Virus record (IMG/VR): IMGVR_UViG_3300021400_001287
Location: 1-64,000 of that record
Source of the DNA: a virus
Taxonomy: Duplodnaviria > Caudoviricetes
Length of the DNA: 64,000 nt
Direction: 5' to 3' (one strand)
Shown: positions 18,092 through 64,000 of the stretch, piece after piece
Layout of the letters: each line of letters opens with the position of its first letter
Numbering within the stretch: the first letter of the stretch is position 1
The notes under the pieces: generated by a model
The model's database searches: none
What the model was told of the DNA's origin: nothing
What the model saw: the letters and a program-made list of their open reading frames with translations, nothing else
Translations under genes and position numbers: made by a program

Positions 18092-18113
18092 TTCCTTCCT
18101 ATTATAATAGAGT

Positions 18114-18189: not shown

Positions 18190-18193
18190 AGAG

Positions 18194-37486: not shown

Positions 37487-37515
37487 AGGATAACACATTG
37501 TACAATGGTTGTCAA
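37487..37515 (-). promoter_or_regulatory. sigmaA early promoter (leftward)
   Basis: TTGACA-17-TATCCT with TGn. Confidence 0.7.
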
Positions 37516-37559
37516 TTACAGAAGTATGAACAAATTGTTACAAAAGTATTTCAGATAAA

Positions 37560-37571
37560 GAACATGTGTTC
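37560..37571. promoter_or_regulatory. LexA (Cheo) box
   Basis: GAACATGTGTTC, identical to the box at 23339. Confidence 0.6.
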
Positions 37572-37591
37572 ATTGTAAAGGATGTGTAAAG

Positions 37592-37801
37592 ATGGAAAAC
37601 AATAAACAGAATAGCAAGTATGAAAAAATAGAATACAACAATGAATATAATAAAACGCATTACCAACAAATAAAATTTTTAGCACCAATTGAAAAACAAT
37701 TTAATTATCGTTTAAAAGTGTTATCTATTGGAACACACAAGAGTAAAAACCAATTATTGATAGAAGCTGTTGAAATGTTACTTGAAAAGTATGACGCATG
37801 A
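37592..37801 (+). CDS. ribbon-helix-helix-like DNA-binding protein
   Basis: EYNKTHYQQIKF..SKNQLLIEAVEMLL; AT-rich. Confidence 0.65.
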   Translation: MENNKQNSKYEKIEYNNEYNKTHYQQIKFLAPIEKQFNYRLKVLSIGTHKSKNQLLIEAVEMLLEKYDA

Positions 37802-38070
37802 TACATTGCTATTCATTGCATAGTCTATCTCATTTCAATCTACAATGATAATAAAACATTGCATAATGTCGATAGAATTATATTACATCGCTCATTCTAT
37901 AAACGCAAACAATTATAAATGCGCCAGGTTTTCAATGTTTGCTCATATGCGCGCGCGTAATATAATCGGAAGCGATTCAGCCGGGAGACAAAAACACGAC
38001 ACATTGACAATATTGCAATGTGATACACAACAGATAATAAATGCAGTGGATTGATGAAAGCCAGGAACGG

Positions 38071-38940
38071 AGACACTTTAGCATACTAAAGCGACACTAA
38101 CTATATTTCATCGAATGCGGCAATATGCTATCACTGCAATTATGCAATAAATAATGGCAATGATAGACAAAATAACATGAACACAATAGACGATGAATTA
38201 GTGATAGATGAATGAATAGATAATGAGTGAAGAAGTAGTGTAGACACTTTAGTATGATAAAGTGACACTAACTACTTTTCAAAGAATGGGATAGAATGTA
38301 ATGTCAATGAATTACAGAAAATAGTATGGATGAATAGAACATCTAGTATTAGATACTAGATATATGAGTATGTTACTACAAAAAGAGATAGTAGCATAAA
38401 GACTAAACAAATAAGTTAAGTGTTAACGGACTAAACAAAAAGAGTAAAGAGACTAAACAAATATGCTAAGTTGAAAAGACTAAACATAAAAGCTAAGTCG
38501 ACACTAAACAAGTTTGTTTAACTATGGTATATAGCAAATATGTTTAGAGTGGTGGATATAGCAAATTAGTTAAGTGAAGCGAATATGCTAAGAGTGGGGA
38601 AGTAAAGCAAATGTGTTTAGTATTCTGACACGATGTCAGTATAGCAATTCTGCTTAGCATCCCTACTTAGCAAATATGCTTAGAAAATACACAAAACAAT
38701 GTCAACTAGTTTTTGATACTAGCTGCACCAAACTTACTGTTTTGTGTAGTTTACGTTTACAAACCATCCCAAACCCCAGCCGACCCTATGCCTATCTCTT
38801 TCCCACTCTCTTCCACTCACCTTCCTCCTTCCACTTTTCTCACTTCATTGCCCATCATCTCTCATATTGCCATCCACTCAGATAAATGAGTTTTCAAAGG
38901 AAAGGGTTAGTGTCGACTTTAGTATGCTAAAGCGACTCTT
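38071..38940. repeat. AT-rich non-coding repeat region (candidate origin or control region)
   Basis: three CTTTAG-N4-(C/A)TAAAG palindrome units; five ACTAAACA units at 38402-38510; several AGCAAAT units. Confidence 0.65.
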
Positions 38941-39108
38941 TTCCCTTCCCATTTACGTTCAATTTTACCGTCCCGATCATCTGGAATTATCTCCAAAAAT
39001 AGAATACTCCACATAACTTTCACTAACATGTCATCTACTTCCAGTGCAATTTATTCCATTTTCAAAGCAATGTGTCGATTTAAATTTAATATAAAGTTTA
39101 CATTCATA

Positions 39109-39148
39109 CACTCTCAAAAATTTCAGATCGTCCATATGAGTATAGTAG
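39109..39148 (+). promoter_or_regulatory. conserved 40-bp phage promoter motif, copy 3
   Basis: CACTCTCAAAAATTTCAGATCGTCCATATGAGTATAGTAG at the head of the rightward unit. Confidence 0.75.
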
Positions 39149-39568
39149 AGGTTGGTTGACCGAAGCCCAGTCAGTCATCAAAACTCGTTTCCCTGAAATC
39201 CCGTTTTCGTTCAATATATTATTATACTATATAACTAAGATGATCTTAACCAAGTTAGAACGATCAGCTGGGATACAGATGACCGTATCTCAGTTACTAG
39301 AACCTAGAGATCAGCTAGACTACAGTCGACCTCTAAAGAGCTATTACTCAAGAACCAAGTTATGTACAATTTCTCTTTCTCTAATAACTAAAACCTTAAT
39401 AGAGTCGACTTAGATGTACAGGTTAACTGTATTACGGTTACTACATATAGGGGAAAGTTGGTTGAAGATTTGAGTGTATCCATGTATACAACGCAAGCGG
39501 AGCAGCCAGGAGCGAAGCGAGTGGCAGCAAAGCGAGTGGCTGCGGAACGCGGTATCGGCGACTACACA

Positions 39569-39913
39569 ATGGAGCTGGAGCGGATTCTTACTCAGTTCCG
39601 TGATGCCGAATCAGCTCTCTCGATGGCGCACACCGAATTGAAGCAATGCGACGACAGGACCCAGGACATCCTCCACGACTTGGAGCTCAACGACCACACA
39701 TACCATGAACGTGGCAAACTGACCACCGAACTCGTCGAAATACGTCGCCGTCGTCGTGTCGCCAAGGATACCATCGAATTGCTCAACCCACTCTGTACCT
39801 GGCTCACCAACAACAGCAAATCGATCTACATGTTAGAGTCAGTGTTGGGTGAGATGAGGAAGGTCGACATTAAACGAGCGAATCGTCAGTATTGGCCTAA
39901 ATGTAAGCAATGA
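39569..39913 (+). CDS. conserved coiled-coil hypothetical protein
   Basis: TQDILHDLEL..RRRRRVAKD. Confidence 0.7.
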   Translation: MELERILTQFRDAESALSMAHTELKQCDDRTQDILHDLELNDHTYHERGKLTTELVEIRRRRRVAKDTIELLNPLCTWLTNNSKSIYMLESVLGEMRKVDIKRANRQYWPKCKQ

Positions 39914-40248
39914 CAGAGCGAGTTCCGAGCGAAGCGAGAGCGAGCGAACCGGATGTATTGGCCGAAGTACGAACGATGAGTGAGCACACCGGACGGAGTG
40001 CTATTGATGGTGTACCGCATTTCGCCGTAGACCGGAGTGAATCCAATGCGCACACCTGCGACACCGTCTCTTTTCATCGATGGCAAGTGTCGCGTGGTGG
40101 ATCGACGACATAACCTCTGTTTAACGTGGTGTTCGAAAACTGTTCACCAAGCATTGGGAGCAAAAGTCTTGCAATTCGACACCGACCGTGTTACAATGGC
40201 ACTCGCACCGGAGAGGACTCGGTGACATTCGACTAGAGGAGTGACGCT

Positions 40249-47500: not shown

Positions 47501-48967
47501 GACTCCGTCAATACGCTCTGGGCACGGCAACCTGACTTTTGCCCGATTACAGAATTTGAGCCCCGTATTAAGACGACAATGCCCCTCTAAATTTACCCTA
47601 CCAAGTAGTCGTCCGAGCGGAGAAAACGCAAGCACGGTATTGACAATCATTAAATAGCAATAAAGGATGTGAATGGGTTTGATAAAGCTCGATAACGAGT
47701 ATTTTGTGACAGCGGATACGCGGTCGTTTGTGCTGAATCGGAAGTACAAACCCGAAGCCCCGAAGAAGAGCGACCTGAAGCCGAGAGAGACAACTGAATC
47801 CGTTGTCGGGTATTACAGCAACATCGCCCATTTACTTAACGCGTACCGCAAAGAGCAGATGCTCAAGTGGGTCGCTGGTGAGAAACTGACGCTGGAGCAA
47901 CTGTGTGACAGGATCAACGAGATGGACGCGACGCTCACCAAGAAGCTGGCGAAGTTGCAACAGATGGATCTTGGCGACGATGCGAAACCGAGGAGGCGGG
48001 GTAAGAATGAGAATGCGGAACAGACGGCCTCGTGATGCTTAGTAGCTTTGCGAAGGCAGGTATAACAATAACAATACAACAAACTGGAGGACAAGATTAT
48101 GATCCATGTGAAGAAGACCGAAAACGGCGTGATGGGATTTGGTTCGATCGAAACCAAGGAAGACGTTGAGAAGCTGATCAAGAACCTGGTCGAGATTCTG
48201 AGTTGTGCTGAAGAAGAGCCGGAACCCGAAGTCGAACCTGCTCCCAACGATGATCTGTTCGATGCGCTGGTAGATGCGCTCGGCTGGGGCGAAGACGAAG
48301 AATGCGACTACGATGAGTGCGAGTGCGAGTGTGAAGACGAAGACGCGGACGAAGACGAGCGCGATGGTCTGCCTCACGTCGTGTCTGTCGGCTACACGCA
48401 TGACTCCGACGAAGTGGTGATCATGAACGACCGCGACACCAAGTGGGGTCTTGCGGAAGCGTTTCTGCGTGCTGCCGCGAAAGTGTGGCCTATTGAAGAT
48501 GGGGAAGACGAGAGACTGAAGGGCGCGTTGCTGGAACTGGCGGGTGTTGCCCATGAGCATGTGGACCCCGACGACTGAATTCGACACGGCAACTGAGCCG
48601 TTTGTGTTGCTTGTAGACTGGGGCGGTAGTCTGCGTCTGGTGGAGCGGAAAGCTATTAAGAATGCGACGAAAGCTGGACCGTACTTCATCGGCGTGGACA
48701 CGCCGCCCATCAAACAAGAAATTGTACTGGAGGACAAGAGTCATGACCGAACTTGTACAACAGATCGAGAACCAGTGGATGACCTACAATGCAGCGATAA
48801 TCAACCATTTGCATCCGGACAAGGAGAAGCAGAGGCTGGCGAACATCATGATCAATAATATGACTGATATCCTTGCCGCACTTCGGGCGTACGAACCCGC
48901 GACCGACGTGATCATCACTGGAGATAAAGACGAGCCGCCCCGCAAGACCAGGAAGAAGGCCGACTGA
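41594..48967 (+). other. run of about 25 small hypothetical genes, many with CxxC zinc ribbons
   Basis: overlapping start/stop ORFs, all ending TAA or TGA. Confidence 0.7.
42864..43310 (+). CDS. HAD-family phosphatase (RNA-repair type)
   Basis: IFLDVDGVLN, VITSTWR, RGDEI..W, YVILDD. Confidence 0.8.
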   Translation: MKIIFLDVDGVLNNLLWARRMFDEGVNVFAKDMLEYRAIELLKRIIDATGADVVITSTWRMRAVQMTHLLDQLARFDIYPIAVTPRLNTDRGDEISAWMQHYDVESYVILDDDSDMDEHMDHLVQTSFEHGLQREHVERAIEILNGVN

Positions 48968-49395
48968 TGGCGAGCGTAAAGTTTGAATTGCGGAACGAGG
49001 GCAAAGGATTGCATGAGTGGGATTACGTCCCGCTTTCTGAACCGAGGATCGTGAAGATGTAGATTGAAAATCGCTCTAAGCTCGACCGCACGTACACAAT
49101 GAAGCTGTATGACAGCAGTCCATTGGTCTCTCAAGGTGTAGCTCCGATGTCCGAGCCGGTTACGGTCACATACTTGGACTTGGATCGTCTCATCAGCAAA
49201 TGCGAGCTGACGAAACTGGAGCAGCTCGTCCTGGACTTGTTGATGCGCGGATACACGCGGAGTGATATCCGGGACGACACGAACTTGACAATGGAGACAA
49301 TTGTTTCATTGTTGACCTCGGCAGTTGAGAAAATCGTGGAAATGAACGAGTACGAATGGCACAGAAGTCATAGACAGATACGTCGTGACACATAA
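48967..49395 (+). CDS. sigma region-4-like HTH protein (in-frame TAG at codon 32, 49060-49062)
   Basis: ATG overlaps upstream stop; PRIVKM*IENRSKLD..LTKLEQLVLDLLMRGYTRSDI. Confidence 0.7.
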
Positions 49396-49436
49396 ACCTC
49401 GTTGTCGTTTAATATATATAGGATGAGGGGATTTAG

Positions 49437-50150
49437 ATGGCAAGCACATTGCGCATCGTTGATCTGAATGGAAAAGTCATCAACGTGGTCAAGGGACAAG
49501 ACCAAACATGGCGCGAAGTCGTGTCGAGAGCAAACCTGCCGGCGCGTTTTGAGTTTTGCCTCCGCCATTGGATGAGCGATGATCCCATCGACACGGCGAC
49601 AGAGGAACACATCAAACAATACCTCGATCGTGTCGGGTATCTGCTCATTCAAGACAAGCCAGATTCGACCATTTTGACAGATTACAAAGAGTTGCGCGAT
49701 AAAGTGGCGCTGATCCCTGTGTCTGGGTTGCCCCAGCTAGAGAATTTGTTTTACGGCAGCCTGGACGAAATGACAGATAGCAATGTCGTGCCGGGCAGAG
49801 AGTCGTCCGAGCGGATGACCAAAGTCGAAGCAAAAGTGTATGGCGCGTTGATGCGACCGAAGAAGATCCCGAAGACGATCACGAAGCTGCAAGAGAAGCG
49901 CAAGCGAATTGATCAAATGCGGGCAACTTATCCTGGCGTCGTGACGGAGTTCATTCGTGTCGACACAAATAATGAGTTTGAGTATCATGGTGTGCGGTAT
50001 AAGGTTTCTTGGAAGCAATATGAGCCGAAGGTAGTATGCGGCGATCTGCTGTATGACATGGATCACATCGTGTGCATTATGGCAGATGACGGTGCGCATT
50101 TTTACGACGAAGATTTCGTCGAGGTAACGGATCACGTCTGTGTGGCGTGA
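49437..50150 (+). CDS. hypothetical protein
   Basis: 237-aa ORF with RBS. Confidence 0.75.
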   Translation: MASTLRIVDLNGKVINVVKGQDQTWREVVSRANLPARFEFCLRHWMSDDPIDTATEEHIKQYLDRVGYLLIQDKPDSTILTDYKELRDKVALIPVSGLPQLENLFYGSLDEMTDSNVVPGRESSERMTKVEAKVYGALMRPKKIPKTITKLQEKRKRIDQMRATYPGVVTEFIRVDTNNEFEYHGVRYKVSWKQYEPKVVCGDLLYDMDHIVCIMADDGAHFYDEDFVEVTDHVCVA

Positions 50151-50156
50151 CCCCAA

Positions 50157-50236
50157 CGGGGCGTAGTAGAATTGGCATATACGGGGGACTCTAAATCTCC
50201 GCCGTTTTATGGGTTCGAATCCCATCGCCCCGACCA
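50157..50236 (+). tRNA. amber suppressor tRNA (anticodon CTA), tRNA-Leu-like
   Basis: perfect 7-bp acceptor CGGGGCG/CGCCCCG, GGGGA-CTCTAAA-TCTCC, ATGGG-TTCGAAT-CCCAT, A73-CCA; anticodon at 50191-50193. Confidence 0.93.
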
Positions 50237-50255
50237 AAGGAAGAAGGTGGACGGT

Positions 50256-51392
50256 ATGGACAGGAATGCGGTATTGGCTATTTTGAATAAAGTGACTGGC
50301 GCTTCGGATTAGGACTGGAGCGAGATCGCGGAGCTCTATCATCTCGACATGCACCCGGATACCCTGCGTAAAGCTGGTGCCGGTGTGAAGATGGTGGCTG
50401 ATGCTGGACTATTGGCTGTACCGAACACGGAAAATAAATACCGTGACGAATACATCGCGAAGAAGCAATTCTTCGACCAGCGTCGTGAGTACAACGCGGT
50501 CTTGGCCCGAGAAGCACGGGGAGATCATCTGCTGGAGTGTCTGCGTGAGTCGGCTGAGAAGCTGAATGAGCAGATGCCTTTGCTCAATAAAGGTGGAGCA
50601 TCGACACAGACTTCGACGACGGAGGCTGTGTTGGTGTTGACCGACTGGCATTACGGTATGGTTGCCAACAACGTATGGAACAAATATGACACGAACATCT
50701 GCAAAGAGCGACTGGAAGAGCTTCGACAAAAGGTTGCCTATAAGCTGGCTCTCCATGATGTGACAATACTCCATGTGTTGGTGTTGGGTGACATGGCGAA
50801 CGGTGCTATCCATGTGACGAGTCGTGTCGCGGCTGAAGAGCACGTGGTAGATCAGCTGATGCAGGTCAGCGAACTTATCGCTGAGTTCGTGGATGACTTG
50901 GCCAATCGAGTACAATACACTCAAATCTATTGCACCTACGGCAATCACATGCGGACGGTCCCGAACAAGAAGGACTCTATCCACGCGGACAATATGGAAC
51001 GGATTATTCCGTGGTGGCTGGCACAGCGCTTTAAGACGCGTGACGACGTCGTGGTAGCTGAGACCGGAAAAGACGAGATGCTCCGGGCTGTGGTGTGCGG
51101 CGCTGAAGTTTGCGCGGTGCATGGCGATCTGGATGGTGGCAAAGACGCGGCGCTGGCTCTGAGCCAGATGTACGAGCGGGCTTTCGGTCGGAAGATGCAG
51201 TATCTCTTCACCGGTCACTATCATTCAATGCTCGATACGGAGAACTACGGCATCACGTCGATCCGGGCGGGCGGGATGTGTGGCGTCGATGAGTACGCGA
51301 AGAACGCGCGATTGTTTTCGACACCGTCTCAGACATTGGCAATATTTGATCGTGGCGAGCTGGACGCACTGTATCATATCCGGTTGAGGTGA
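50256..51392 (+). CDS. calcineurin-like metallophosphoesterase (in-frame TAG at codon 19, 50310-50312)
   Basis: SD*DWSEI..HPDTLRK; TDWHYG, LGD, YGNH, VHGD, GHYH. Confidence 0.85.
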
Positions 51393-51396
51393 TAAC

Positions 51397-52260
51397 ATGG
51401 CAAAGAAAAGTCCTGAAAAGATGTGTCTGCGTTGCCATGAGATCAAGCCGTAGGATGAGTTCTATCACAACCGCGGTTGGGCGGAACAGCAGTACGCTGA
51501 TACGGTGTGTCGCGAGTGCGCCAGATCATTGGTGCATTGCAAAGACGACGCTCGTAAATATTGCTGGGATAACAATCGCGTCTGGAATGACAAGATATGG
51601 GACGCCGCCCATAACAAAGCGATGTACATGCTGGCGAACAACAAAGAGTACCTCAGCAAAAATACATCGAAAAAGAGAAAAGACGAAATTGAGCTGGCTT
51701 ATACGTCAACTCAATTTTTTGCTGTCATGAACACCGCGCCGCTGTATCGGTTTGTGGAGAACCGAGACGATGAGTACGATCCGGACTCTGTAGCCGGTAC
51801 GACCCAGGAACTCGGCACCACACGGGATGACGACGAACTGGTCTGGAGCGACGAGTGGAATGGCATGTACAAGAAGCGGGAGCTTCGGTATCTGGATGAT
51901 TATTTCCAACGGTTGCAAGATGAATTCGTCATCGACAACGTAAACCGTGAGGACTACGCCCGACGGGTGGCGAAGGCGTCACTGGAAGCCGATAATAAAT
52001 ACCAGAAGATGCGGCAGGGCACTGGCACAGCGAAAGAGTGGCAGGAAGCTCAGAGCATGTTTGACATGCTGAGCAAGTCAGCGTCGTTTGCTGAGAGCCA
52101 GAGAAAAGAAGTCGCCAACACGTCGACGAACGCGTTGTCCACTATCATCATGGACATCGAACTCAACCACCACAATGAGATGCCCAAGGTGACATTTGAG
52201 AAAGACGACATCGATCTCATACTCAGAGACTTTGGCTTTACCGGGGAGGCTATCGCGTAA
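51397..52260 (+). CDS. Zn-finger protein upstream of TerL, possible terminase small subunit (TAG at codon 19, 51451-51453)
   Basis: CLRCHEIKP*DEFY..CREC zinc finger is complete only with readthrough. Confidence 0.7.
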
Positions 52261-53915
52261 TGCCCCGTATCGATCAAGTTAAAGATATCAAGAATTACGC
52301 GCAGTGGTGGACTCAGATATAGTTCTGGCGGACGCACCTGGACGTGTTTATTCAGCAATACTTCAGTGTGAAGCTGAAAGACACGCAGCAAGTCATCGCG
52401 AGAGCGGTCGGTCTGGCGAGTAACAGTCGGATCGTGAAAAGCCGCGGATATGGCAAAACATGGCTGATCGCCTGGTGCGCTGTGGCGATTGCAATCTTGT
52501 ATCCCGGCACCTCGATCGGTGTCGTGTCGGCCACTGCCGCTCAAGCGACACTGGTCTTGAAAAAGATCAAGAAGTTCACGCGGCAATATTCAATCCTGGC
52601 CGGCGAGATGGTGTCGACCGGCAAAGACTTCGTTCGTATCTCGAAGGATAAAGGTTACTGTGAGTTTTTGAACGGCTCGTCCATCGAGTCGTTTTCGATC
52701 AACCAGGTTGTTGGTGAGCGTACCAAGGTGCTGATCATTGACGAAGCGCCCAGAGCTAACGAACAGGATATCAAGAAGAACGCCGAGCCGACGCTGAACA
52801 CAACGCGTGACTGTTGTATCCAAGGTGGTTACGATGACTTCAGCTCGAAGATCATCTATATTACCTCCGCCTGTTTGAAGAGTAACTTCTTCTACAGGGA
52901 CTTCGTGAAAGCCTATGAAGCGATGCGGAGTGGCGACCCGACATCATTTGCGTGTGTGTTGAATTATCAGAGCGCCGTGCGATGCGGGTTGACGAAAGCC
53001 AGTTATTTTGAAGGTCGGAAGAAAGCGTTGCCGGAGAGCGTATTTGCCACGGAATATGGCAGTTACTTCCTCGGCGCTGAAGCCGGTACGCTGTTCCCGT
53101 TCGACTTGACGGACACCGTGCGGACACTTCGCCGCGTTGAAGCGAAACAGCCGAAGAACAGCAAATGCTGGTACATCATATCTATTGACTTGGCCAGTTC
53201 CGATGCGAAGGGCGCGGACAACGCTGTGCTGGTGGTCATCAAGTGCGTGGACAAAGAAGACGGCACCGTGATGAAGAACGTGGTGTACATCCGATCGTAT
53301 CACGGCTGGCGACTGAACGCGTTGGCAAATGAAGTGCGCAAAGTCTATGTTGCGTTCCCCGGAACAGTGCGTATTATCTACGACGCGAAGGGATTGGGCT
53401 TTTCGTTTGCACAATTCTTCTCCGAGCCGTGGATCGACGACGCAACCGGTAAAGAGTATGAGCCGTGGACAGACGAGCATACCGCGATCCCCGGCGCGAA
53501 TCCAATATTGTTTGCCTTCAAAGCGACGCCGGTGTTGAATGTGCAACTGGTATCTACGTTGCGCGTGGCGTTGGAGCAAAAAACAGTGGCGTTCCCGGTG
53601 CCAAGCACGGATATCGACGACGTGATGGTGTCGGAGGAAGATGACGACGAAGGCGAGAAGATCGTCCGGCTGTCGATGGAGGAGAGTGCCATTTATCTGG
53701 AGGCCGACGCTTTGCAAGTGGAGCTTGGATCCATCGTATCAAAGAGTACGATGGCCGGCAACGTCGTTTACGATACCGAAAAGAAAAATCAACACAAAGA
53801 CAGATACTCGGCGCTGGCGATGGGCGTATGGTACATCAGCCAGGTCGAGGACGATAATAAACGCCGGTTGCGGAACCGGGGCAATGCTTGCATTGGCATT
53901 GTTGACAGCTTTTGA
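52260..53915 (+). CDS. terL: terminase large subunit (TAG at codon 21, 52320-52322)
   Basis: SRGYGKT Walker A, LIIDEA Walker B, IDLA..ADN and KDRYSAL nuclease motifs. Confidence 0.92.
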
Positions 53916-53929
53916 TGGGAGGAAAAAGT

Positions 53930-55510
53930 ATGGCGGCATTTTGGAGACGGGGGAATAAGACGCAGCCCGTTGAGCCCCCGAAAGTCCGTCCCGCCGTATG
54001 CGTGAGCGGCGAGGAAGCCAAGGTTGATGTTGGGCTGACTTATGACAACTCCAATATCACGATGGCAGCTTGGATGCCCGGAGTGGACTACCGCGCCATT
54101 CTGATGGACAAGCAAGCGCACATCTATGACCTGTACGCCTAGGCGGACTACTTCGTCGACGCGGATCCCATTTTTCGTGGCATCATCAAAGGTGTTTACA
54201 CGCCGTTCAGTGTTTCTGAATGGCGGTTGGAGGGCACCAATGACCGGGTCAAGGAAAAATACGAAGACTATTATCTGCGCATTCACTTGCGGGATAAGAT
54301 GTGGTCGATCTTTTATCAGTACTTCAAGTATGGGCAAGTGTTCGTTTACTTGAAGGATGATGGAGATATTATTACATTGCCGCCTCATCGGTGTCGTATT
54401 GCGAACGTGATGGTGGCTGGCGAACCCATTGTGGAGTTCAATGCGTTGCAGGTGGCCATTGACCTTGGCTATCGCAAATACGATTCGCTCCAAAAATGGT
54501 TAGAGGACGACAAATTCGAGGTGAGGATGAGAGGCTATCCCCCCGAAGTAACGACCGCCCTGAAAGATGGCAAAGAGTGGGTTCAGCTGAACCCGATGAG
54601 GACGTTCGTTTTGCAGGACATCAAAGAAGACTGGTTGCGATATGCTATACCATTGATCGCGGCGGCACTGCTTGCGCTTCAGAAAAAAGCCATGATCTCG
54701 AATTACGAGAACTCGACTTTGAATATGATGGTGCATAGCTTCCTCCACGTCCAGTACGGTGACGCGACCAAGAACGCTGATTTCCTGCCGAACCAAAACG
54801 AGCTTCAAGCTCTGAACACTCTGTTCAAAGCGGCCATGTCGAAGAATGGCACTGGCATCGCGACCACGAACGTGTTTGCGAAAGCACAGTTCATTCAGCC
54901 GGACATCAACGACCTGTTCGACAACGACCTGTACTCCAATGTCAACAACGAGATTCTCTCGGCTGGCGGCATCAGCGGTATCATCGTGAACGGGTTGGCA
55001 GAAGACGGATCGAGCTTCGCCAGCGCTCAAGTCTCCATGCAGACGGCGGCGTTGCGCATCAAACAAGCGCGGGACAACTTCTGTGAATTAATGAACAAGA
55101 TCAACGTGCGTCTCAACGGCGGCATCCTGCCTCGGAGCAAAGACGAGAACGTGCCTACGTTCAAGTTCCCGCCGGTTGATCTGACGGGGAGCGGTAAGTT
55201 CTATGAGACTTGCCTCAACCTGTGGAAATAGGGCGTGCTGAGTACCCGGACCATGATGGACGCTCATGGGTTCGACATGGAGCAGGAATTCAGACGGCGC
55301 ACCGATGAAGACGATAGCGGCGTTACGAAAACCATGTCGCCACGTCAAGAGACGCAAAACGAGGAGAGCGACACAAACCAAAGCACCGACACCGACGTCA
55401 GCAAAAAGGTCGGTCGACCGACACTTACCAATGACGAACGGCAAAGCGATCCGGCTGATGCTTTGACTGGACGGCAACCGAAACCGAGCTCTCCGGATGG
55501 ATCACTTTAA
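53930..55510 (+). CDS. portal protein (TAGs at 54140 and 55229)
   Basis: three track ORFs in one frame joined by TAG readthrough to 526 aa; position after TerL. Confidence 0.8.
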
Positions 55511-55561
55511 TCACACTGTCGGCTCCTCCTAGCCGACGGAATGATAAATGAGGTGGCAAAC

Positions 55562-56872
55562 ATGCAGAAATTTGTTATGGCCGCTTCGGACATTTCTCTG
55601 GATTATCCGCAGAGTAATGAAATTTACTTTTCTGTAACAATGCGGATGCTGACAACGGAAACCAACTAGAATGGCGTCCGTCTGACCGCTGGTTTTATCG
55701 ACGATATTGCAACGCATGCGGAAGAATATGTATGTATGCCGCTGTGTGCCGACGTGGATCGGCTGGCTCGCGGCTTGGACATCGGCCTCACTCACATGTA
55801 TGATGAGCAACGGCAGGTGTTCGAAGCGCCGCAGGTCGGCAGTTTTTTTGAGGTGCATAGAGAAGACGACGAGCACGGAGTTAGCTTGGTCGGCACGGCT
55901 AGAATTAACAAGCGCAATGCCAATGTGACTGATAAGATCATCGAGATGTTCAACACCAACCGGCTCAAGTTCAGCTTTGAAATTTGGGCGAGTGAGGTGT
56001 ACGAAGAGGACGGAGTGACGGTGGTTGACGCCGCGCCGGGTAACCGGTTGACGGCGATGGCTATCGTTACCACGCCGGCTCTCCCCGCTGCTGTGGCTCT
56101 GAACCTGGCGGCGGAGGTGGATATTGACGCGTTCCGTGGCAAAGTCTATGACTTGCTGTGGACGAAGTATCCGAGCGAGTGCTGGAACGTTGTCTGGATG
56201 GGTTTGGATTACGCCGTTATTTACTTTTCTGAGCACGGCAATATGGTACGCATTGCGTATCGTATGGATGGTGACAAACTCGTCGAGACGGAGGAATACG
56301 AAGTTGGCTTCGCACGAATTGACGAGGTGAGTGACAACATGAATATTACGCTGGCAACCGCCGAGGTGACCAACGTGGAGACCCCCGATGTGAACGAGGT
56401 GTCCGCTGTTGCCGATGCGGTTATCAATACTGACACAGTGGAGACTCCCGCTGTGGAAACCGAGACTGCTGCTTGCGGCGATCCCGAAAACGCGGCTTGC
56501 GATGACAAGACGGCGGAGGTCGAAAACGACATCGATGACGACATCAAAGACGAGTCGGACGACGATGCCCATGACCTGGAAGAGATGCGTCGAGAGCTGG
56601 AGCGCGTGAACGCTGAACTGGCTCGATACAAGGCGGCTGAAGAAGCTGCGAAGATGGCGGAGAAGCGTGCCGCCGCAAAAAAGTACGCGGAGCGTGAACA
56701 CCTGAATCTGGAAGCGGAAGACGTTAAAGCGGCGATCGATAACGCCGACTATGAAGCGCTTGCTGCTGCCGTGATGGCGAAGCCCGCGGACGACAAGAAT
56801 GAAGAAGCCTACCGTGTTACCGCGGAGATCAAGCTGTCTCCCTATGGCAACATGTTCGAGAAGGCGAACTGA
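55562..56872 (+). CDS. prohead protease/scaffold (TAG at codon 36, 55667-55669)
   Basis: GAGGTG RBS; ETN*NGVR, FSFEI, PA..A; acidic coiled-coil C-terminus. Confidence 0.75.
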
Positions 56873-56886
56873 GGAGGATATGCAAT

Positions 56887-57324
56887 ATGGCTGGTTACAT
56901 GACTAAGCTGGTCGGCTCTGATGGCATTTACGACGGCAGCTACAAGGCTGGCGAAGTGCTGACCAATGGTATTTTTGTCAACATCGCTGCGGATGGCACC
57001 GTGAAGAAGCTCACCGGCGCTGGCAGCATCGAGATGCGCGTTCGCGAGAAGACCACTCTGTGGGGTCTGCCCGCTGTGATTCTGGACGTCGTCCTTGAGG
57101 GCGATGGTACTGCGTACTTTGTGGAGCAGGTCGAGCCCGGCGTTCGTGAAGAGTGGAACGACATCGCGAATGAGATCAAGATCGGCGAGTTCGTGCGTAT
57201 GCACAAGCCTCTGCTGGGCGAGCAGCTGATCATGAGTGTTACTTCCGAAGTGCTGGCGACTCTGGCTGAGGGCGACACTGCGAAGCCCGCTGCCGGTGGT
57301 ACCATTGCGAAGAAGTCTGCCTAA
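56887..57324 (+). CDS. capsid decoration-like protein
   Basis: position between scaffold and capsid; strongly biased codons. Confidence 0.65.
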   Translation: MAGYMTKLVGSDGIYDGSYKAGEVLTNGIFVNIAADGTVKKLTGAGSIEMRVREKTTLWGLPAVILDVVLEGDGTAYFVEQVEPGVREEWNDIANEIKIGEFVRMHKPLLGEQLIMSVTSEVLATLAEGDTAKPAAGGTIAKKSA

Positions 57325-57339
57325 GGAGCGTGAAATATA

Positions 57340-58335
57340 ATGGAAACCATCACCAAGGACATGAATATTGTTAAGGCGTAGGCTGCTGACGCCCGCCACG
57401 AGTCTCTTGACTCTAACGTCCGCGAGAACATGAACAAGGTCGTTCATGAGCTGGCAGCGGATCGTAACCCCATGAACCTGTATCAGATCGGTCAGCTGAT
57501 GGCCTTCACTGTTGAAGAGCTGGAGCGCCCCATGACCAACTGGCTGGATCTCGTTGCCGATCATAAGCGCATTGGCGCTGGCGACGAAGCCGCTTTCCGC
57601 ACCACCGCGAACGGCATCCGCGCCGTCATCCAGGCCAAGGCTGGCACCACTCCCCGCAGCCGCGTTGCCGACAAGCAGATTGTCGTTGACACCGTTGCCG
57701 TGTCTGTGCGTCCCGCTGTGAACCTGCTTGAGCTGGCCTCCGGTAAGATCAACTTCGGTGACCTGGCCATGTATGCCGCTGTCGAGCTGGCCAACAAGAA
57801 GACTCAGTATGTGCAGCAGGTGCTCGACGCCGCCGCGACTTCCTTCGCCTCTCCTTTCTACGGCTCTGGCGCTGGTATCGTTGCCGCGACCTTTGATCCC
57901 ATGGTGCAGCACTGGATGCGCACCGGTGGCGCTGCGATTATCGGTGACATCGCTGCCGCACAGAAGCTGGCTCCTCTGACTGGCTTCACCGCCTCCACCA
58001 ACTCTCAGTGGGGCAATGGCATTATCGAGGAGTTCAATCGCACTGGCCGCATTGGCACCTACAAGGGCGCCCAGGTTGTGCAGACTGTGAACCCCTATCT
58101 GCCTGACGACGTGACCCCTGTGCTGAATATCAGCAAGCTGTATATCGTGCCCACCACGATGAACACTGATGCCCGCAGCCTGAAGGTCGTCGAGCAGGGT
58201 GGCGTGATCTCCGTGGAGAACACTTCCATCAACGAGCTGACCTACGAGGTCCGCATGGACGAGCACTTTGGTGCCGCCGTCGTGTACGGTGTGCAGCCCA
58301 CTGTGTCCGTGTACTACGACTCTACTCTGGGTTAA
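57340..58335 (+). CDS. major capsid protein (TAG at codon 14, 57379-57381)
   Basis: AAGGAG RBS + ATG 57340; 331 aa; high codon bias; synteny. Confidence 0.8.
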
Positions 58336-58380
58336 TGCTAAATGTTGGTCGGCAGAGAGACCTTAAACCTCTGACCATCG

Positions 58381-58412
58381 GCGGGGCTCTTTACTGAGCT
58401 CCGCCTACTATT
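58381..58412 (+). terminator. hairpin after the capsid gene
   Basis: GCGGGGCTC-TTTACT-GAGCTCCGC. Confidence 0.55.
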
Positions 58413-58435
58413 TATGCGAAAGGTGAAGGTTTGAT

Positions 58436-58864
58436 ATGGCTGACAGGGTACGAATTATCAACGAGAGCACGCATGATGTCGGTCTCGTTAATCAGAATGG
58501 CATTGAATACAACATCCGTCCTGGCACGTTCATCACGTTGACGAAGGACGACTGTGAATATATGGTGGCAATTGCTCCGAAGCTGTTTGCCCGTGAAACA
58601 CGTGGTGCTGAACTGCGCATCGACAATGAAGAGCTGGCGAAGGATTTGAATATTGTTGCGCCCGGTGATCCAACACCGGCTTCTGAATCGGTCATCCGGA
58701 AGGCGTTAGGCGGCTCGGTGAACTCGATCAAGAAGTATGTTGCCGAGATCGAAGATGCGTACACCATTGACGCGATTGTTCAGGTTGCGCACAAGATGGA
58801 TCTTCCGGTGAGCAAAATGAACGTGCTCAGGGAAGCCTTCCCGAACAAGTTTATCAACGACTAA
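58436..58864 (+). CDS. hypothetical virion-module protein
   Basis: ORF with RBS. Confidence 0.75.
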   Translation: MADRVRIINESTHDVGLVNQNGIEYNIRPGTFITLTKDDCEYMVAIAPKLFARETRGAELRIDNEELAKDLNIVAPGDPTPASESVIRKALGGSVNSIKKYVAEIEDAYTIDAIVQVAHKMDLPVSKMNVLREAFPNKFIND

Positions 58865-58881
58865 AAGTGGGGTGCAGGGCG

Positions 58882-59319
58882 ATGACAGATTAGACGACAT
58901 GGATGGACGACCTGTATCTGGATGTCCAATGGCAACGCATCCCCGTGGCGATGACGAAGATCGAAGAGATGCAACTCCTGTCTCGTTGTTTTGTACACGG
59001 CCTCGAATCTATGTTTATCGCCACTGGCAAAGCGATGCAATTTGACGCGGACTGGCTGACGTTTTCGGACGAAGGCGTGCTTGTCTCAACGACCCAGGAC
59101 TTGAAAATAGACGAGCTCCGGTACGCGTTTTTGAAGGCGAAAATCGAATTCTTCAAGCGGGTCCAAACTGACGTGAACAACATCGTTGGCTACACCACCG
59201 ACGCTTTGACTGTGACAAACGCGGACAAACCGTATCAAAACTTATCACAGACGATCGAAGGTCTGGAGAAAGAATTGCGTCAGATTTTCTACACGATGAT
59301 CCGACATGCTTATCTGTGA
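58882..59319 (+). CDS. putative head-tail adaptor (TAG at codon 4, 58891)
   Basis: MTD*TTWMDDL; synteny. Confidence 0.6.
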
Positions 59320-59329
59320 GGTGAGCGGG

Positions 59330-59587
59330 ATGATTGTGAAAGAAACACTTGCGACACGAAGCGGAGGCAAACAAGTCGTCATGACGCCGTTCAACGACTA
59401 TTGCGATCATCTGAGGGTGGACGTATTCAAAGCGCTTGGCGACGTCGAAGCAATGTGCGAGATGATGACTGGACAGTGTCGATGCGATTGGACAGAAAAT
59501 GAAGTCGAAGCGTATAGCAAAGTGCGGTCGCGGCTTTTGAACCTGGCTGGCGCTGTGGCGCGTTAGCCCCAGAACTAGGAGGGGTGA
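59330..59587 (+). CDS. hypothetical protein (TAGs at 59564 and 59576)
   Basis: RLLNLAGAVAR*PQN*EG then TGA 2 nt before the next ATG. Confidence 0.65.
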
Positions 59588-59589
59588 CG

Positions 59590-60330
59590 ATGCAGAAACC
59601 AGCGGTCGTGCCGGCGAACTAGACGCCGAGCAATCGGACTTTTTACTAGCCGCCCACCATTCAGAGTGACTATACAAATTTGCTATGGCAAGATCATCCG
59701 CATTTCACAGAGACGTTTGAGCTGGTCCATAGTTGGATTGAACATTTGCGTACAGATGACCCTTAGTATATTCGCGCTACGTACTTCCCTGTTGACTGGA
59801 AGAGTAAGGTCGGCAATTCCGACGCGAGCGCGAACTTCAAGACGGATTGGAACAATCTGATCTGGAAAGGGGACTATATCATCCGCGATGGCGGGGAGAT
59901 ATTGCTTCTTACTTGGGATGTCAAAGAGCACATGAACAACCAAGCGACACAGGCTCAGATATGCAATTTGAAGCTGACGCTGGTTCGGCATGTTCAAGCT
60001 CAAGCAGATGAGCGCGGCTTCATGGAAGTACCGGCTCATGACGAGTATGTGCTTTATGAGCACCCGGCGACGTTCTCGCCGTACGCTGGTCGCCCGGACT
60101 ACATTGCGACGGCGAACGTGCCAGGTATCAATGCAGACGCTTTGATGAGCGGACAAATCCAGTTCAATGAAGAGACGAAGAAGATGACCATTAACGACGA
60201 GTTTGAGTACGGCGGATTTACGTATCGACTGATCAACGTGGACTGGTCTGAAGTCAACTACGATAACACGGCTGGCATCATCAATTTCAACTGTAAACGA
60301 GTGGCAGGTGGTATGAATGCTCCAGATTGA
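59590..60330 (+). CDS. putative head-closure/neck protein (TAGs at 59620, 59647, 59764)
   Basis: AGGAGG RBS + ATG 59590 in frame with track ORF 59902. Confidence 0.7.
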
Positions 60331-60883
60331 TGAAGCGGCTGATTTCAAGTTCAATTCTTCGACTCTGATGAATCGGTTGCGGCCAGTTCTTGTACCCGCT
60401 ATTGAAACGGCGGCAGATCAATATATCAAAAAAATGGGGCAACACGCCAAAGAAACGACAGCGGTTGGCAAAACGGGGCAAGGAGCTCCCGGCGCTCGGG
60501 AATGGCGTTCAGATGTCGGTAATGACCTAAAACGCATGAACCTTCAAGTGTCCGTTGATGCCATTGAAATTGATGTTGGTATCTATGGTGATGAATCTTT
60601 GCAAAAACGCGTTGAAGTCATCAACACTGGTTCTGGTAATAAAGCTGGTGGGGCAGCAATGGAATATGGCCCCTATGGTCGTAGTGTTTGGAACGACGAT
60701 TTAAGCGGGCGGACCACTAGCAAGACGACACGAACTGGAGATATGCCGGATGGATTCAACAATACCGGTAACCAATTTGCTCAGAAAGCCAAGGATGAAA
60801 TGGAGAATGAAAAAGAGCGGATTGTGCAACACGCGTTGCGCCATATATCACCAACATTGTTGGAAGGTGTTATTCATCAGTGA
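60317..60883 (+). CDS. putative neck/tail-completion protein
   Basis: synteny. Confidence 0.55.
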   Translation: MLQIDEAADFKFNSSTLMNRLRPVLVPAIETAADQYIKKMGQHAKETTAVGKTGQGAPGAREWRSDVGNDLKRMNLQVSVDAIEIDVGIYGDESLQKRVEVINTGSGNKAGGAAMEYGPYGRSVWNDDLSGRTTSKTTRTGDMPDGFNNTGNQFAQKAKDEMENEKERIVQHALRHISPTLLEGVIHQ

Positions 60884-60898
60884 AAGGAGGAGAGCCCA

Positions 60899-61369
60899 TT
60901 GATCGTGACAAAAAGCTGGGCGGATAGATGGAACGATATCCAGCGCGATGTGCTCTTCCCCGATGAAGAGCTCAAGCAGTTGATGATGATTCCGGACGGC
61001 ACGAACATCGTGACATGGATCCGGAAGTATTTCGTTTCAGAGGCGCTTTGCACCGAGTTGGTGACAGATGAAGATGTCCGTGTGCTTTGGTATGAAGATC
61101 AGAGTTCACATACAAACAACCCGTTGATCAACAACCGCAAGATGTGCTTTGATATATATGTGAAACAAGCCCACAACAACGACGCAACAAACGACTTATT
61201 CGTTAGCCGTGGAAAACTCATTGCGCAAAAATTACAAGAGATCTTGACATTCCCGGCGACTGTTGGGCGTGTAAAATTTTTCTATGTCGACGACTACGAC
61301 GTCGGCACAAAGATGGTCGGATACGTACGACACCATTTGGTCGTGTCGTATCTGGCTGGACATGCGTAA
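60899..61369 (+). CDS. putative tail terminator
   Basis: AGGAGG RBS, FDIYV motif, precedes the major tail gene. Confidence 0.55.
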   Translation: MIVTKSWADRWNDIQRDVLFPDEELKQLMMIPDGTNIVTWIRKYFVSEALCTELVTDEDVRVLWYEDQSSHTNNPLINNRKMCFDIYVKQAHNNDATNDLFVSRGKLIAQKLQEILTFPATVGRVKFFYVDDYDVGTKMVGYVRHHLVVSYLAGHA

Positions 61370-61442
61370 TAACAACACAGCCAGCGATAGGAGGAGCCGA
61401 CTGTGACGTTATATATCGACTCTTATTAAGGAGGAAAACTGT

Positions 61443-62282
61443 ATGGCTTATATTAAGACCCCTATGGGCTTTGTGTCCAACGCACCTCATATTTAGTTCC
61501 AGCGTTGTGACGGAGCTCGCTTTTACAGCGATACCGGTACTGCTGGTAGCATGACCAATACGGACAACTCGACCGCTGTTTACGGTGGCTGGGCGAAGTC
61601 TCCTATCGGTTATATTGAGGGCGACTCCACCATGGAAATTTCTTACACCGACGCGATGTTCTATCAAGACATGTTCTCCGTGTCCAGCGCCGGTACTGAG
61701 GTGACCACGAAGGATACCGCGGTGCGTGGCGGCGGCGTTTACACCGTTAAGACCGGTCCGATCGTCGAACTGCCGTTCCAGGTGAAGCTGGACACCATTC
61801 AGATTCACGGCTTTGATGTGTAGGGTACTGGCACCGCCGCTGCTGGTAAGCCTGTTGCCGCGTATGACAGCACCAACAAGAAGACTACGATTACCTTTGC
61901 TTCTGGCGATGTGGCGGTTGGCGACGACCTGATCGTGACTTATGAGCGCCGTGTGGCCAGCGCCGATGTGGCTACGATTACCACTAATGGCAGTTCTTCT
62001 CGTGGCAGTCTGACGATGACTTGGGCTGTTATGAGCGATGGCAGCGACTGCTCTCAGGCTTCGATCGTTGGTTTCCTGCATCTGCAAGTGCCTCGCGTCA
62101 TGGTTACCACCCGTGCGTCTCTGGACACTTCCCGCGGCACGGCTGCGACACCTAATATCGTGTTTGCTGCCATCGACGCCCACCGTGGTGATCAGAAGTG
62201 GTACGATCTGATTTGGGAACCCCTGGAGGATGGTGCTATCAGCACTGATTACGCCGAGGGCGACTTTGTTTGGGATATTTAA
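61443..62282 (+). CDS. major tail (tube) protein (TAGs at 61494 and 61821)
   Basis: AAGGAGG RBS; two track ORFs fused to 279 aa; T/G/A-rich; followed by terminator and chaperones. Confidence 0.75.
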
Positions 62283-62291
62283 CCCGACAGA

Positions 62292-62322
62292 TGGGGCTGG
62301 GTAACACCAGCCCCTTTATTTT
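62292..62322 (+). terminator. intrinsic terminator
   Basis: GGGGCTGG-GTAACA-CCAGCCCC-TTTATTTT. Confidence 0.75.
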
Positions 62323-62339
62323 GTAAAGGAGAGGTCACG

Positions 62340-62750
62340 GTGAAGGTTAAGAAGGTACCGGATATTGGCATGGCGGAGAAAGAACTGCCGATGGTTGGCG
62401 CACCGGAGAACACAGTTACTGTGGCGGGGTCGCTGATTGAAATCAAGCCGACCAAGCTCAAGTATTTGCGCAACGGAACGGCGAATTTTTTTCGGCTCAT
62501 CGAACGGATGAGCATACTCGACATTGTGCAATTGCCGTCTGGCGCGTTCGGCGAAGATGACGATCGTGATGGTGACAAAGCCATGATGGATTGGCTCATT
62601 GCCGCGACGGATAACCCGGAGTTTGTGCAAGAACATTACGATGAATTTGACACAGAGCAGATCCTGCGCGTGTGTGATATTTTTAAGCGAGTCAACAAAT
62701 TCGTGAAAGAAGACGACTCAAAAAACGCAGTAACCCCGGCGGAGGCATAA
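62340..62750 (+). CDS. tail assembly chaperone (G-like)
   Basis: follows the tail tube gene; ends just after a slippery A-AAA-AAC. Confidence 0.7.
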   Translation: MKVKKVPDIGMAEKELPMVGAPENTVTVAGSLIEIKPTKLKYLRNGTANFFRLIERMSILDIVQLPSGAFGEDDDRDGDKAMMDWLIAATDNPEFVQEHYDEFDTEQILRVCDIFKRVNKFVKEDDSKNAVTPAEA

Positions 62751-63088
62751 CGATCGACCGGGGAATGGCGCTCATTGCCGCGCATCTGGGCATTATAGAC
62801 GAAGATGCAATTTTGGACATGACCTTTGACTGGTTTAACGAAGTGCTCGAAGTATTGGGTGAAGTGGTAAACTACAACGCCGTGGTGAATTACGCGGGCA
62901 ACTCATTCTGCGAAAAGTCGTGGGACATGATCCTGGATAACAATCCGATGTTGAAGGGGCAGATACTGACATCTGACCAGCGTTCGTGGGAACAGTTTTT
63001 CAACACGGCAAAAATTCGGACGATAACCAAAGGAGAACGGAAAAATGGAGAAGAAAATGGTGGTTTTGGGGCAGGAGGTTTCGGTTAA
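62720..63088 (+). CDS. -1 frameshift extension (GT-like chaperone)
   Basis: -1 frame open from 62720 into ORF 62765-63088. Confidence 0.7.
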   Translation, partial: KKRSNPGGGITIDRGMALIAAHLGIIDEDAILDMTFDWFNEVLEVLGEVVNYNAVVNYAGNSFCEKSWDMILDNNPMLKGQILTSDQRSWEQFFNTAKIRTITKGERKNGEENGGFGAGGFG

Positions 63089-63584
63089 AAACCACGTCGG
63101 CTATCAACAGAAGATGGACGCGGCGGAGGAGTATGTTGCGATGTCGGCAGTGTTCGATGAAGAGCATGGGCTCTGCTATATGTCTCCGTATGAAGAAGCC
63201 GTGAAGAAATACATGAAGCTCAAGACGTATACTGGACTTGACATGAGCAACTACAACGGCATCGACGGTCTGTGCCGATTGATGGACGACATCGACGAGG
63301 TGCCCATCGACGAGTTCGAAGGATTCGTTGACGACGACTGGGTGATCATTTACAACCTGGCTTACGTGATCTATTGTAACGTGTCGGATGTGTTCGAAAA
63401 AGAGCATTCTCTTGAACATCGCGTTAAGACCAGTTTCGGTTTCCTGCTGGACGGTAAAGACTTGACTCAGACATTGGCGGAAGCGCGTGAAGTCAACGAG
63501 CAGATGATCGACCATCTCGGCGCGATCGCTAAGACGAAAACACAGCCTATCGATATGGCGCAGTATGCAAAGAAGCGCAAGTAA
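63045..63584 (+). CDS. hypothetical protein
   Basis: AAGGAG RBS; 179 aa. Confidence 0.75.
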   Translation: MEKKMVVLGQEVSVKNHVGYQQKMDAAEEYVAMSAVFDEEHGLCYMSPYEEAVKKYMKLKTYTGLDMSNYNGIDGLCRLMDDIDEVPIDEFEGFVDDDWVIIYNLAYVIYCNVSDVFEKEHSLEHRVKTSFGFLLDGKDLTQTLAEAREVNEQMIDHLGAIAKTKTQPIDMAQYAKKRK

Positions 63585-63607
63585 TATGAAGTGAGGAGTG
63601 ACGCTGA

Positions 63608-64000
63608 ATGGCGGACAATCTGGTATAGGGGAAACTGCGGTTTGATACGTCGTAGATTGATAAACAATTGTCCGACGTCACGGCGAAGCTAAACGAAGTC
63701 AAGAAGATAGCGGCGCAAGCGAAACAAGTTGCCGGTGCGACAAAAACCGCGTCGCGGTCATCTGCCTCCAAGAGTGCGTCAACATCTGCGGACAAAGAGC
63801 AGTTGCGTATTATCAGAGAACTGAAGACATATACAACTGATTTAACAAAAGCGCAACGTGAATATGTCACAGCACTCAAGACGGGCAATGCTGAAAACGT
63901 GAACTATTGGAGCAATGAGACCAATAGAATAAAGGCATCTATCGATGCCCATAAAGAACAGGCGTCTGCGATCGACATGAGCCGCAACAACAGGGCTAAG
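63608..64000 (+). CDS. probable tape measure protein, 5' part (TAGs at codons 7 and 16)
   Basis: GAGGAG RBS; MADNLV*GKLRFDTS*IDKQL.., helical A/K-rich frame open to the window end. Confidence 0.65.

Follow-up and report, generated by a model that had tools for sequence, protein, structure and literature searches.

Leucine-decoded amber codons cluster at the 5′ ends of late genes in an SPbeta-like phage: a candidate translational gate

Why would a phage place a stop codon within the first few dozen codons of its terminase, capsid and tape measure genes? The question is raised by IMG/VR virus record IMGVR_UViG_3300021400_001287, a genome of 91,208 bp with direct terminal repeats, of which bases 1-64000 form the 64,000-nucleotide stretch analysed here (the window). 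The coding strand is the minus strand up to about 40 kb and the plus strand thereafter. From position 48967 the plus strand carries a sigma-factor-like gene followed by genes for an exonuclease/phosphoesterase, a 287-amino-acid protein, the large terminase (TerL), portal, head, capsid and tail proteins and a 2130-amino-acid tape measure. An earlier examination of the window's letters, which we call the sequence-only reading, had noticed in-frame TAG (amber) codons near the N-termini and proposed that they form a translational lock, released by a suppressor transfer RNA (tRNA), rather than neutral recoding. We found that the 5′ bias of these TAG codons is strongly non-random, is replicated in related phages and holds beyond the window. 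A translational gate is the best-supported reading of the early TAG codons, and from the comparisons described below we hold it with moderate confidence.

Start codons were picked by their Shine-Dalgarno sites and every TAG coordinate was checked. The late-gene set of the whole genome comprised 30 genes with 11,383 codons, 867 leucine (Leu)-plus-TAG sites and 30 TAG codons. Seventeen of these 30 fell within codon 40, a region that holds 11.9% of the Leu sites (hypergeometric p = 1.7e-9). The observed 5′ clustering was not equalled in any of 100,000 global permutations, and permutation of TAG against Leu codon positions with each gene's TAG count kept gave p <= 5e-5, a bias beyond chance of the kind that the sequence-only reading had expected. 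For the late genes of the window, 12 of 18 TAG codons were within codon 40 where 2.2 were expected (hypergeometric p = 5e-8). The TAG share of Leu codons was 22% in codons 1-20, 11% in codons 21-40, 4% in codons 41-80, 2% in codons 81-160 and 1.2% beyond. Sixteen plus-strand genes led by Shine-Dalgarno sites between 40.2 and 49.0 kb, taken from their position to be early genes, contained no TAG; among Leu sites in the first 40 codons, TAG was used at 0 of 50 in these upstream genes versus 17 of 103 in the late genes (Fisher p = 0.0015).

The rare Leu codons of the standard code showed no 5′ bias, with 2 of 27 CTA, 1 of 40 TTA and 7 of 97 CTT codons within codon 40, so that TAG is unlike them, as the lock proposal had supposed. 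This result also bears on the possibility of a translational ramp, in which a slow codon near the start would space the ribosomes. The range of codons 3-40 does fit the proposed ramp region. However, CTA, TTA and CTT are not 5′-enriched in the same genes, the genes upstream of the late block are without TAG, and known ramp biases are far smaller than the roughly tenfold TAG effect; we consider a ramp very improbable.

The TAG-bearing genes of the window and the putative suppressor tRNA are listed here by position.

378-935, minus strand: RuvC-like gene; TAG at codon 21 (873-875); Pfam RuvC match and a Shine-Dalgarno start.
3815-4399, minus strand: GIY-YIG endonuclease; TAG at codon 35 (4295-4297); Pfam GIY-YIG match over residues 2-88, across the TAG.
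13997-14737, minus strand: PD-(D/E)XK nuclease; TAG at codon 8 (14714-14716); PDDEXK_1 match over residues 2-238, across the TAG; AAGGAGG Shine-Dalgarno site.
21622-22236, minus strand: ERF single-strand annealing protein; TAG at codon 20 (22177-22179); Pfam ERF match; AAGGAG Shine-Dalgarno site.
48967-49395, plus strand: sigma-factor-like gene, 142 amino acids; TAG at codon 32 (49060-49062); PHROG sigma factor match (1e-08).
50157-50236, plus strand: tRNA with a CUA anticodon, Leu-type body, A73 and encoded CCA; found by ARAGORN, Rfam tRNA score 50.3 bits.
50256-51392, plus strand: exonuclease/metallophosphoesterase, 378 amino acids; TAG at codon 19 (50310-50312); phrog_284 match (6e-58) and a weak Pfam Metallophos match.
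51397-52260, plus strand: gene of 287 amino acids; TAG at codon 19 (51451-51453); GAGGTG Shine-Dalgarno site; phrog_3314 match over residues 4-279, across the TAG.
52260-53915, plus strand: TerL, 551 amino acids; TAG at codon 21 (52320-52322); phage homologues align from residue 1-5.
53930-55510, plus strand: portal, 526 amino acids; TAG at codons 71 (54140-54142) and 434 (55229-55231); phrog_2739 match across both TAG codons; GGAGG Shine-Dalgarno site.
55562-56872, plus strand: head-module gene, 436 amino acids; TAG at codon 36 (55667-55669); GAGGTG Shine-Dalgarno site.
57340-58335, plus strand: major capsid, YonB-like, 331 amino acids; TAG at codon 14 (57379-57381); orthologues in relatives match Pfam YonB.
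58882-59319, plus strand: gene of 145 amino acids; TAG at codon 4 (58891-58893); in seven other genomes this column is Leu (six) or Ile (one).
59330-59587, plus strand: gene of 85 amino acids; TAG at codons 79 and 83; orthologues have Leu or Ile at both; true stop TGA at 59585-59587.
59590-60330, plus strand: gene of 246 amino acids; TAG at codons 11, 20 and 59; AGGAGG Shine-Dalgarno site.
61443-62282, plus strand: virion structural (tube-like) gene, 279 amino acids; TAG at codons 18 and 127; phrog_2729 match; AAGGAGG Shine-Dalgarno site.
63608-64000, plus strand: 5′ end of the tape measure gene, which ends at genome position 70000 (2130 amino acids); TAG only at codons 7 and 16.

With starts chosen in this way, 16 of the 17 first-TAG positions given by the sequence-only reading were matched; the remaining value, a TAG at codon 4, was without a well-supported gene. 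Its statement that the long genes (551, 436, 378 and 331 amino acids) have exactly one TAG each, at codons 14-36, held, and its label of protease for the 436-amino-acid protein found no family support. The tape measure is the clearest case of the 5′ rule, with TAG at codons 7 and 16 only in 2130 codons. Each of the four minus-strand nuclease and recombination genes (RuvC, GIY-YIG, PD-(D/E)XK and ERF) has a single TAG, at codons 8-35. The gene at 59330 departs from the rule, with both of its TAG codons at the 3′ end.

Because reading TAG as a sense codon extends frames back past any upstream TAG, and would alone put TAG codons near apparent starts, the pattern could in principle be an artefact of a standard code in which the real starts lie 3′ of the TAG codons and the early TAG codons belong to an upstream frame extension. 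This explanation is almost certainly wrong. Strong Shine-Dalgarno sites (GGAGG, GAGGTG and AAGGAGG) are present at the starts 5′ of the TAG codons, whereas none was found at the first start codons 3′ of them. In BLASTP comparisons with stop-to-stop translations of seven related loci, namely five relatives (L003-L007, 70-87% TerL identity) and the outgroups L008 and L009, the alignment began at residue 1 in most genes. With ten genes pooled over the five relatives, amino acid identity before the first TAG was 64.2%, with 46% of differing codons synonymous, and in the rest of the same genes it was 64.2%, with 48% synonymous, indicating the same purifying selection on both parts. In addition, the two outgroups, which use the standard code, have uninterrupted full-length orthologues with mostly Leu at the TAG columns, Pfam and PHROG family matches run across several of the TAG codons, and a conserved tRNA(CUA) is present. 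Public TerL homologues with at least 68% identity (P0001-P0011) were all called 26-39 residues short, since an early TAG does this to a standard-code gene caller. The sequence-only reading had itself raised the prospect of real starts downstream of the TAG codons. This candidate was rejected on Shine-Dalgarno placement, orthologue alignments, pre-TAG selection and outgroup orthologues, which establish, by comparative criteria, that the start codons are upstream.

The amino acid inserted at TAG was assessed from the residues aligned with it. Over all orthologue alignments, Leu was opposite TAG in 214 of 391 cases, followed by Ile, Met and Val, and in the two outgroups Leu was found in 62 of 123. 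The TerL column was Leu in 8 of 15 full-length homologues, within the motif Q-I-L-F-W-R. For the window, TAG columns contained 54% Leu, 12% Ile and 10% Val, as compared with 59% Leu and 7% each of Met, Ile and Val at ordinary Leu codons. The log-likelihood of the TAG columns was -154 for Leu and -210 for Ile, the next best residue, a difference of about 55 units in favour of Leu. Gln was opposite TAG in just 6 of the 391 aligned cases, so the code in which TAG specifies Gln (code 15) was not encountered. Because the residue profile at TAG columns fits Leu codons best, decoding of TAG as Leu is established at the level of alignments, in line with the proposal of the sequence-only reading and with the presence of a phage tRNA(CUA). 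In orthologues and outgroups, most TAG columns hold a conserved Leu, which corresponds to silent Leu-to-TAG substitutions.

The tRNA(CUA) gene starts 6 nt past the stop of the gene at 49437-50150 and ends 19 nt before the start of the gene at 50256. It occupies the same place in the five close relatives and lies between late-block genes in all six genomes. Compensatory double changes were seen in 12 of its 21 base pairs, and the YTCTAAA loop, A73 and CCA were invariant. Comparison with a second phage tRNA, tRNA(CAA) (16623-16698), revealed an identical D-loop, A73 in both and 66% identity; the variable loop is short in both, which sets them apart from canonical bacterial tRNA-Leu. It is the Leu-aligned TAG codons, rather than the tRNA body, from which we infer Leu charging of tRNA(CUA). 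Promoter and terminator scans around tRNA(CUA) yielded only weak promoter-like matches that were no better than those in shuffled sequence.

The tRNA(CAA) belongs to a minus-strand tRNA cluster at 16623-18452, in which a 76-nt tRNA called as Leu(CAA) and a 78-nt tRNA called as Leu(UAA) both have short variable loops. Two more members of the cluster are unusual: the anticodon of one is AUA (18114-18189), and the other has an anticodon loop of 8 nt, read as CAAA (18379-18452).

As a terminator, TAG has nearly disappeared: of 114 open reading frames (ORFs) led by Shine-Dalgarno sites, 102 terminate with TGA or TAA, and no more than two have a plausible genuine TAG stop. One of the few may be in the tyrosine recombinase gene at 81964-82968, where codon 329 of 334 is a TAG that overlaps the following gene's ribosome-binding site, with TAA five codons on. 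A search of the phage genome for a release-factor gene found none.

The 5′ bias was replicated in the relatives. Numbers of TAG codons at codons up to 40, 41-80 and beyond 80 were 9/5/3, 15/2/2, 11/4/5, 8/2/4 and 9/3/0 in L003-L007, respectively, as compared with 10/3/3 in the window. Among 64 distinct TAG columns, 34 lay within the first 40 codons, 15 in codons 41-80 and 15 further on. The TAG sites often differ between genomes while the 5′ bias stays, which is what the sequence-only reading had foreseen for a lock that moves between Leu sites in related phages yet remains 5′. TerL has TAG at codon 21 in the window, L005 and L006, at codon 4 in L003 and L004, and at codons 77 and 80 in L007; codon 27 is also used among the relatives. 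For the exonuclease/metallophosphoesterase, codon 19 is common to L003-L005, L007 has a TAG at codon 30 instead, and the remaining genomes have Leu or Met. The 287-amino-acid gene has TAG at codon 11 or 79, or none, in relatives, and the portal gene at 49, 71, 100/182, 356 or 9/11. At column 36 of the 436-amino-acid gene the relatives have Leu or Ile, with a TAG at 30, 41 or 61 instead. Sites 11 and 20 of the gene at 59590 are each common to four genomes, whereas the gene at 61443 has its TAG at codon 3 instead in four relatives. The tape measures of L006 and L007, inspected directly, likewise have two TAG codons within about the first 16 codons, after which that of L007 continues for 2274 codons without a stop.

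Two sites were fixed. The capsid TAG at codon 14 is kept in 6 of 6 TAG-using genomes, and the sigma-like TAG at codon 32 recurs in all 5 relatives that cover the site; both columns are Leu in both outgroups.

Beyond these relatives, contig JAVBOM010000008.1 (L026; 300,378 bp, 50% TerL identity), from a metagenome-assembled genome (MAG) of Eubacteriales, has TAG at codons 7, 9, 14, 8, 6 and 15 in large late genes and could be a recoded prophage whose host uses the standard code. In outgroup L008, the fetched locus contains a tRNA island that lacks a suppressor, and internal TAG codons are absent. The other outgroup, L009 (52% TerL identity), has an 88-nt long-arm tRNA(CUA) at 7562-7649 in the same tRNA island and 2-3 in-frame TAG codons in 21 kb, and may represent an early stage of recoding.

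A gate would account for these features as follows. While charged suppressor is scarce, host release factor 1 (RF1) would cut translation off within 3-40 residues, so that stray or premature transcripts would yield no protein and little waste. Once the tRNA had accumulated, read-through of each gene would require competing with RF1 only once. An early position of the TAG would make failure cheap and would avoid long truncated structural proteins. As tRNA(CUA) lies inside the late block, it is probably cut from the same transcripts, and the sigma-like gene upstream would be gated as well. Late proteins would then need both transcription and enough charged suppressor, forming a coherent feed-forward AND gate. 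Nuclease and virion genes would profit from such filtering of leaky or premature transcripts, and so would a prophage, should the phage be temperate.

The 5′ bias could also result from tolerated drift, in which TAG is a seventh, imperfectly read Leu codon that purifying selection clears except near the start, with no regulatory role. Whether TAG serves as a gate or is tolerated wherever a failure to read through does little harm, a 5′ bias is predicted, because such a failure would be costlier the later it happens, with synthesis wasted and harmful truncated structural proteins made. The two models are not separated by the sequences. The TAG share declines smoothly with codon position, as drift would have it. 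In codons 1-20 TAG is commoner than four standard Leu codons, which drift does not lead one to expect, but its share there is below that of TTG and CTG (30% each), a level that near-neutral use could explain. Most sites turn over among relatives and many late genes are ungated. The absence of TAG from the upstream genes also follows from drift if the tRNA is not yet present when they are expressed. Conversely, the capsid, the most abundant protein, keeps TAG14 in every TAG-using genome although synonymous sites are near saturation; this conservation favours the gate because the capsid should least tolerate a loss of yield. The fixed TAG of the sigma-like gene and the persistence of a gene's gated status when its site changes also argue against drift, which we judge unlikely, though a serious alternative.

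Further hints of selection for the presence of TAG, beside the capsid and sigma-like sites, come from its retention and from replacement of lost sites. TAG was retained across genomes in 47-48% of Leu-Leu pairs, versus 22-30% for TTG and 20% for CTC; the TTG and CTC values were near their usage, as expected near saturation. When a window site was missing in a relative, another TAG was present within 100 codons of the gene in 23 of 33 cases, whereas for genes ungated in the window relatives had a TAG in that range in 12 of 37 (p = 0.004). Of the 30 late genes, 20 carry a TAG and, by hand tally, 13 of these exactly one; 15.8 genes with at least one TAG were expected, a marginal excess (p = 0.026 genome-wide, 0.087 in the window) that is at best neutral between the two models.

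Several observations weigh against the gate. The retention and replacement tests take no account of shared ancestry. A single base change can turn TAG into just one synonymous codon, TTG; this by itself slows the loss of TAG and could be partly responsible for its high retention. About 10 of the 30 late genes are without TAG and several have two or three, so the sequence-only reading's rule of exactly one TAG per gene does not hold in general. Genes with 0, 1, 2 and 3 TAG codons in the first 80 codons numbered 12, 15, 2 and 1 by hand tally, which is close to Poisson and agrees with drift; neither under-dispersion of counts per gene nor over-dispersion of distinct sites per family was significant, also by hand tally. 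Mid-gene or 3′ TAG codons occur in the portal gene (434), the gene at 61443 (127) and the gene at 59330 (79 and 83), and past the window two large tail genes within 71167-76307, at 71167 (254, 362 and 724) and at 73809 (547), have mid-gene TAG codons only. The base after TAG (G 14, A 8, T 5 and C 3) did not differ from that after other Leu codons, giving no sign of adaptation. Lastly, TAG codons were scattered in two unrelated IMG/VR phages with a similar tRNA, L010 and L011. Because of this scatter, the 5′ bias belongs to the present phage group and not to every TAG user. The tRNA(CUA) of both phages is 84 nt long with the same D-loop motif (L010:3078-3161 and L011:6981-7064), and one ORF of 536 amino acids has TAG at codons 75, 175 and 479.

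A lock might also confer a benefit other than timing, such as hiding proteins that are sensed by host defences, keeping a prophage silent or barring use by other elements. The genes gated in all six genomes are those for TerL, portal, capsid and the virion-module genes at 59330 and 61443, and the nucleases are gated too; moreover, the genome has three tyrosine recombinase genes, and a relative sits within a 300-kb bacterial MAG contig. However, lysogeny and host defence are conjectural here, and this idea is a refinement of the lock model rather than a separate mechanism. We regard it as improbable.

In its broadest form, the gate would be a genome-wide AND gate in a clade of Clostridia phages. 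Some 25 late and nuclease genes would all be unlocked by a single tRNA-Leu(CUA), each having one or two amber codons within its first ~40; selection would keep the gate gene by gene while the Leu site drifts. We consider this extended version evenly poised between right and wrong.

The assignment to Clostridia comes from distant relatives. SPbeta-type families YonB, YomW and YomU are matched by orthologues in the relatives, and on this gene content the phage is SPbeta-like. A megablast search of 49000-64000 against deposited phages gave no match. Neither TerL peptide patterns in IMG/VR nor a first contig scan returned anything, and all that a later profile scan brought up were more distant relatives with 48-51% TerL identity; these come from MAGs of gut Clostridia, and one lies within a 300-kb contig. 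Because the distant relatives sit in such MAGs, the host is probably a member of the Clostridia.

The features that mark phage recoding are found here, namely translated in-frame stops, a cognate suppressor tRNA, a preference for late genes and rare use of TAG as a terminator. Borges et al. (bioRxiv 10.1101/2021.08.26.457843) described phages in which TAG is recoded to Gln (code 15) or TGA to Trp (code 4) and proposed regulation of late and lysis genes; leucine and N-terminal or intragenic position are not mentioned in their text. The present phage resembles theirs in having a phage suppressor tRNA, in-frame stops in late and structural genes and early genes in the standard code. It differs in using Leu, with about 1-3 TAG codons per gene in the first 40 codons, whereas theirs use Gln with many per gene. 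In phAss-1 the recoded stop is likewise Gln. No paper reporting TAG as Leu or 5′ clustering of TAG in phages was found in the literature searched, and TAG as Leu is an addition to the phage recodings, Gln and Trp being those known in the searchable literature. TAG specifies Leu in chlorophycean mitochondria (NCBI codes 16 and 22), an unrelated lineage with full reassignment, for which we know of no positional bias or gating.

The sequence-only reading had likened the lock to bldA of Streptomyces, an analogy that is apt as a way of working and does not extend to family membership. Among the TTA-bearing ORFs of Streptomyces, 92% contain just one TTA; conservation of the sites is poor, and nuclease and recombination genes are enriched (PMC10327506). 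In both systems one dedicated Leu tRNA gates, or would gate, a set of genes that includes a regulator (adpA in Streptomyces and, in the phage, the sigma-like gene). However, TTA is a sense codon at which a missing tRNA stalls rather than terminates translation, whereas here the codon is an amber stop read by a CUA anticodon, and bldA is a chromosomal developmental system and not a phage one. Literature searches on a 5′ bias of bldA-dependent codons returned nothing directly relevant. A 5′ bias of TTA codons was reportedly described by Fuglsang in 2005.

The closest parallel in design is engineered. In the supP leak dampener, an Escherichia coli Leu amber suppressor in which the anticodon is changed from CAA to CUA is combined with genes in which Leu codons are silently changed to TAG or a TAG directly follows the start codon; a coherent feed-forward loop damps leak (Ho et al., Nucleic Acids Res 2020, PMC7969014). 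The phage has a putative Leu amber suppressor and shares the Leu-to-TAG changes, apparently arisen naturally and in about 25 genes rather than in an engineered circuit. If the gate is real, it would be a natural counterpart of such dampeners and would offer a natural, compact design for leak-free expression.

Earlier timing proposals for phage recoding rested on which genes carry stops, and intragenic position adds information to this. Tenfold 5′ enrichment despite site turnover is predicted by a gate or by strong selection on read-through cost, but not by a neutral code change. If the gate is real, positional bias would be the first sequence-level signature separating regulatory recoded stops from a simple change of code. 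There is also a consequence for annotation: under codes 11, 15 or 4, gene callers cut these genes short or translate them wrongly.

Two further observations concern the genome at large. The region at 36000-40000, which contains the switch point of the coding strand, has a GC content of 0.40-0.43 versus about 0.50, with many TAG codons in all frames and no well-supported genes. Finally, the three tyrosine recombinase (Phage_integrase) genes of this single 91-kb genome are at 22465-22977 (minus strand), 82456-82914 (plus strand) and 85013-85522 (minus strand).

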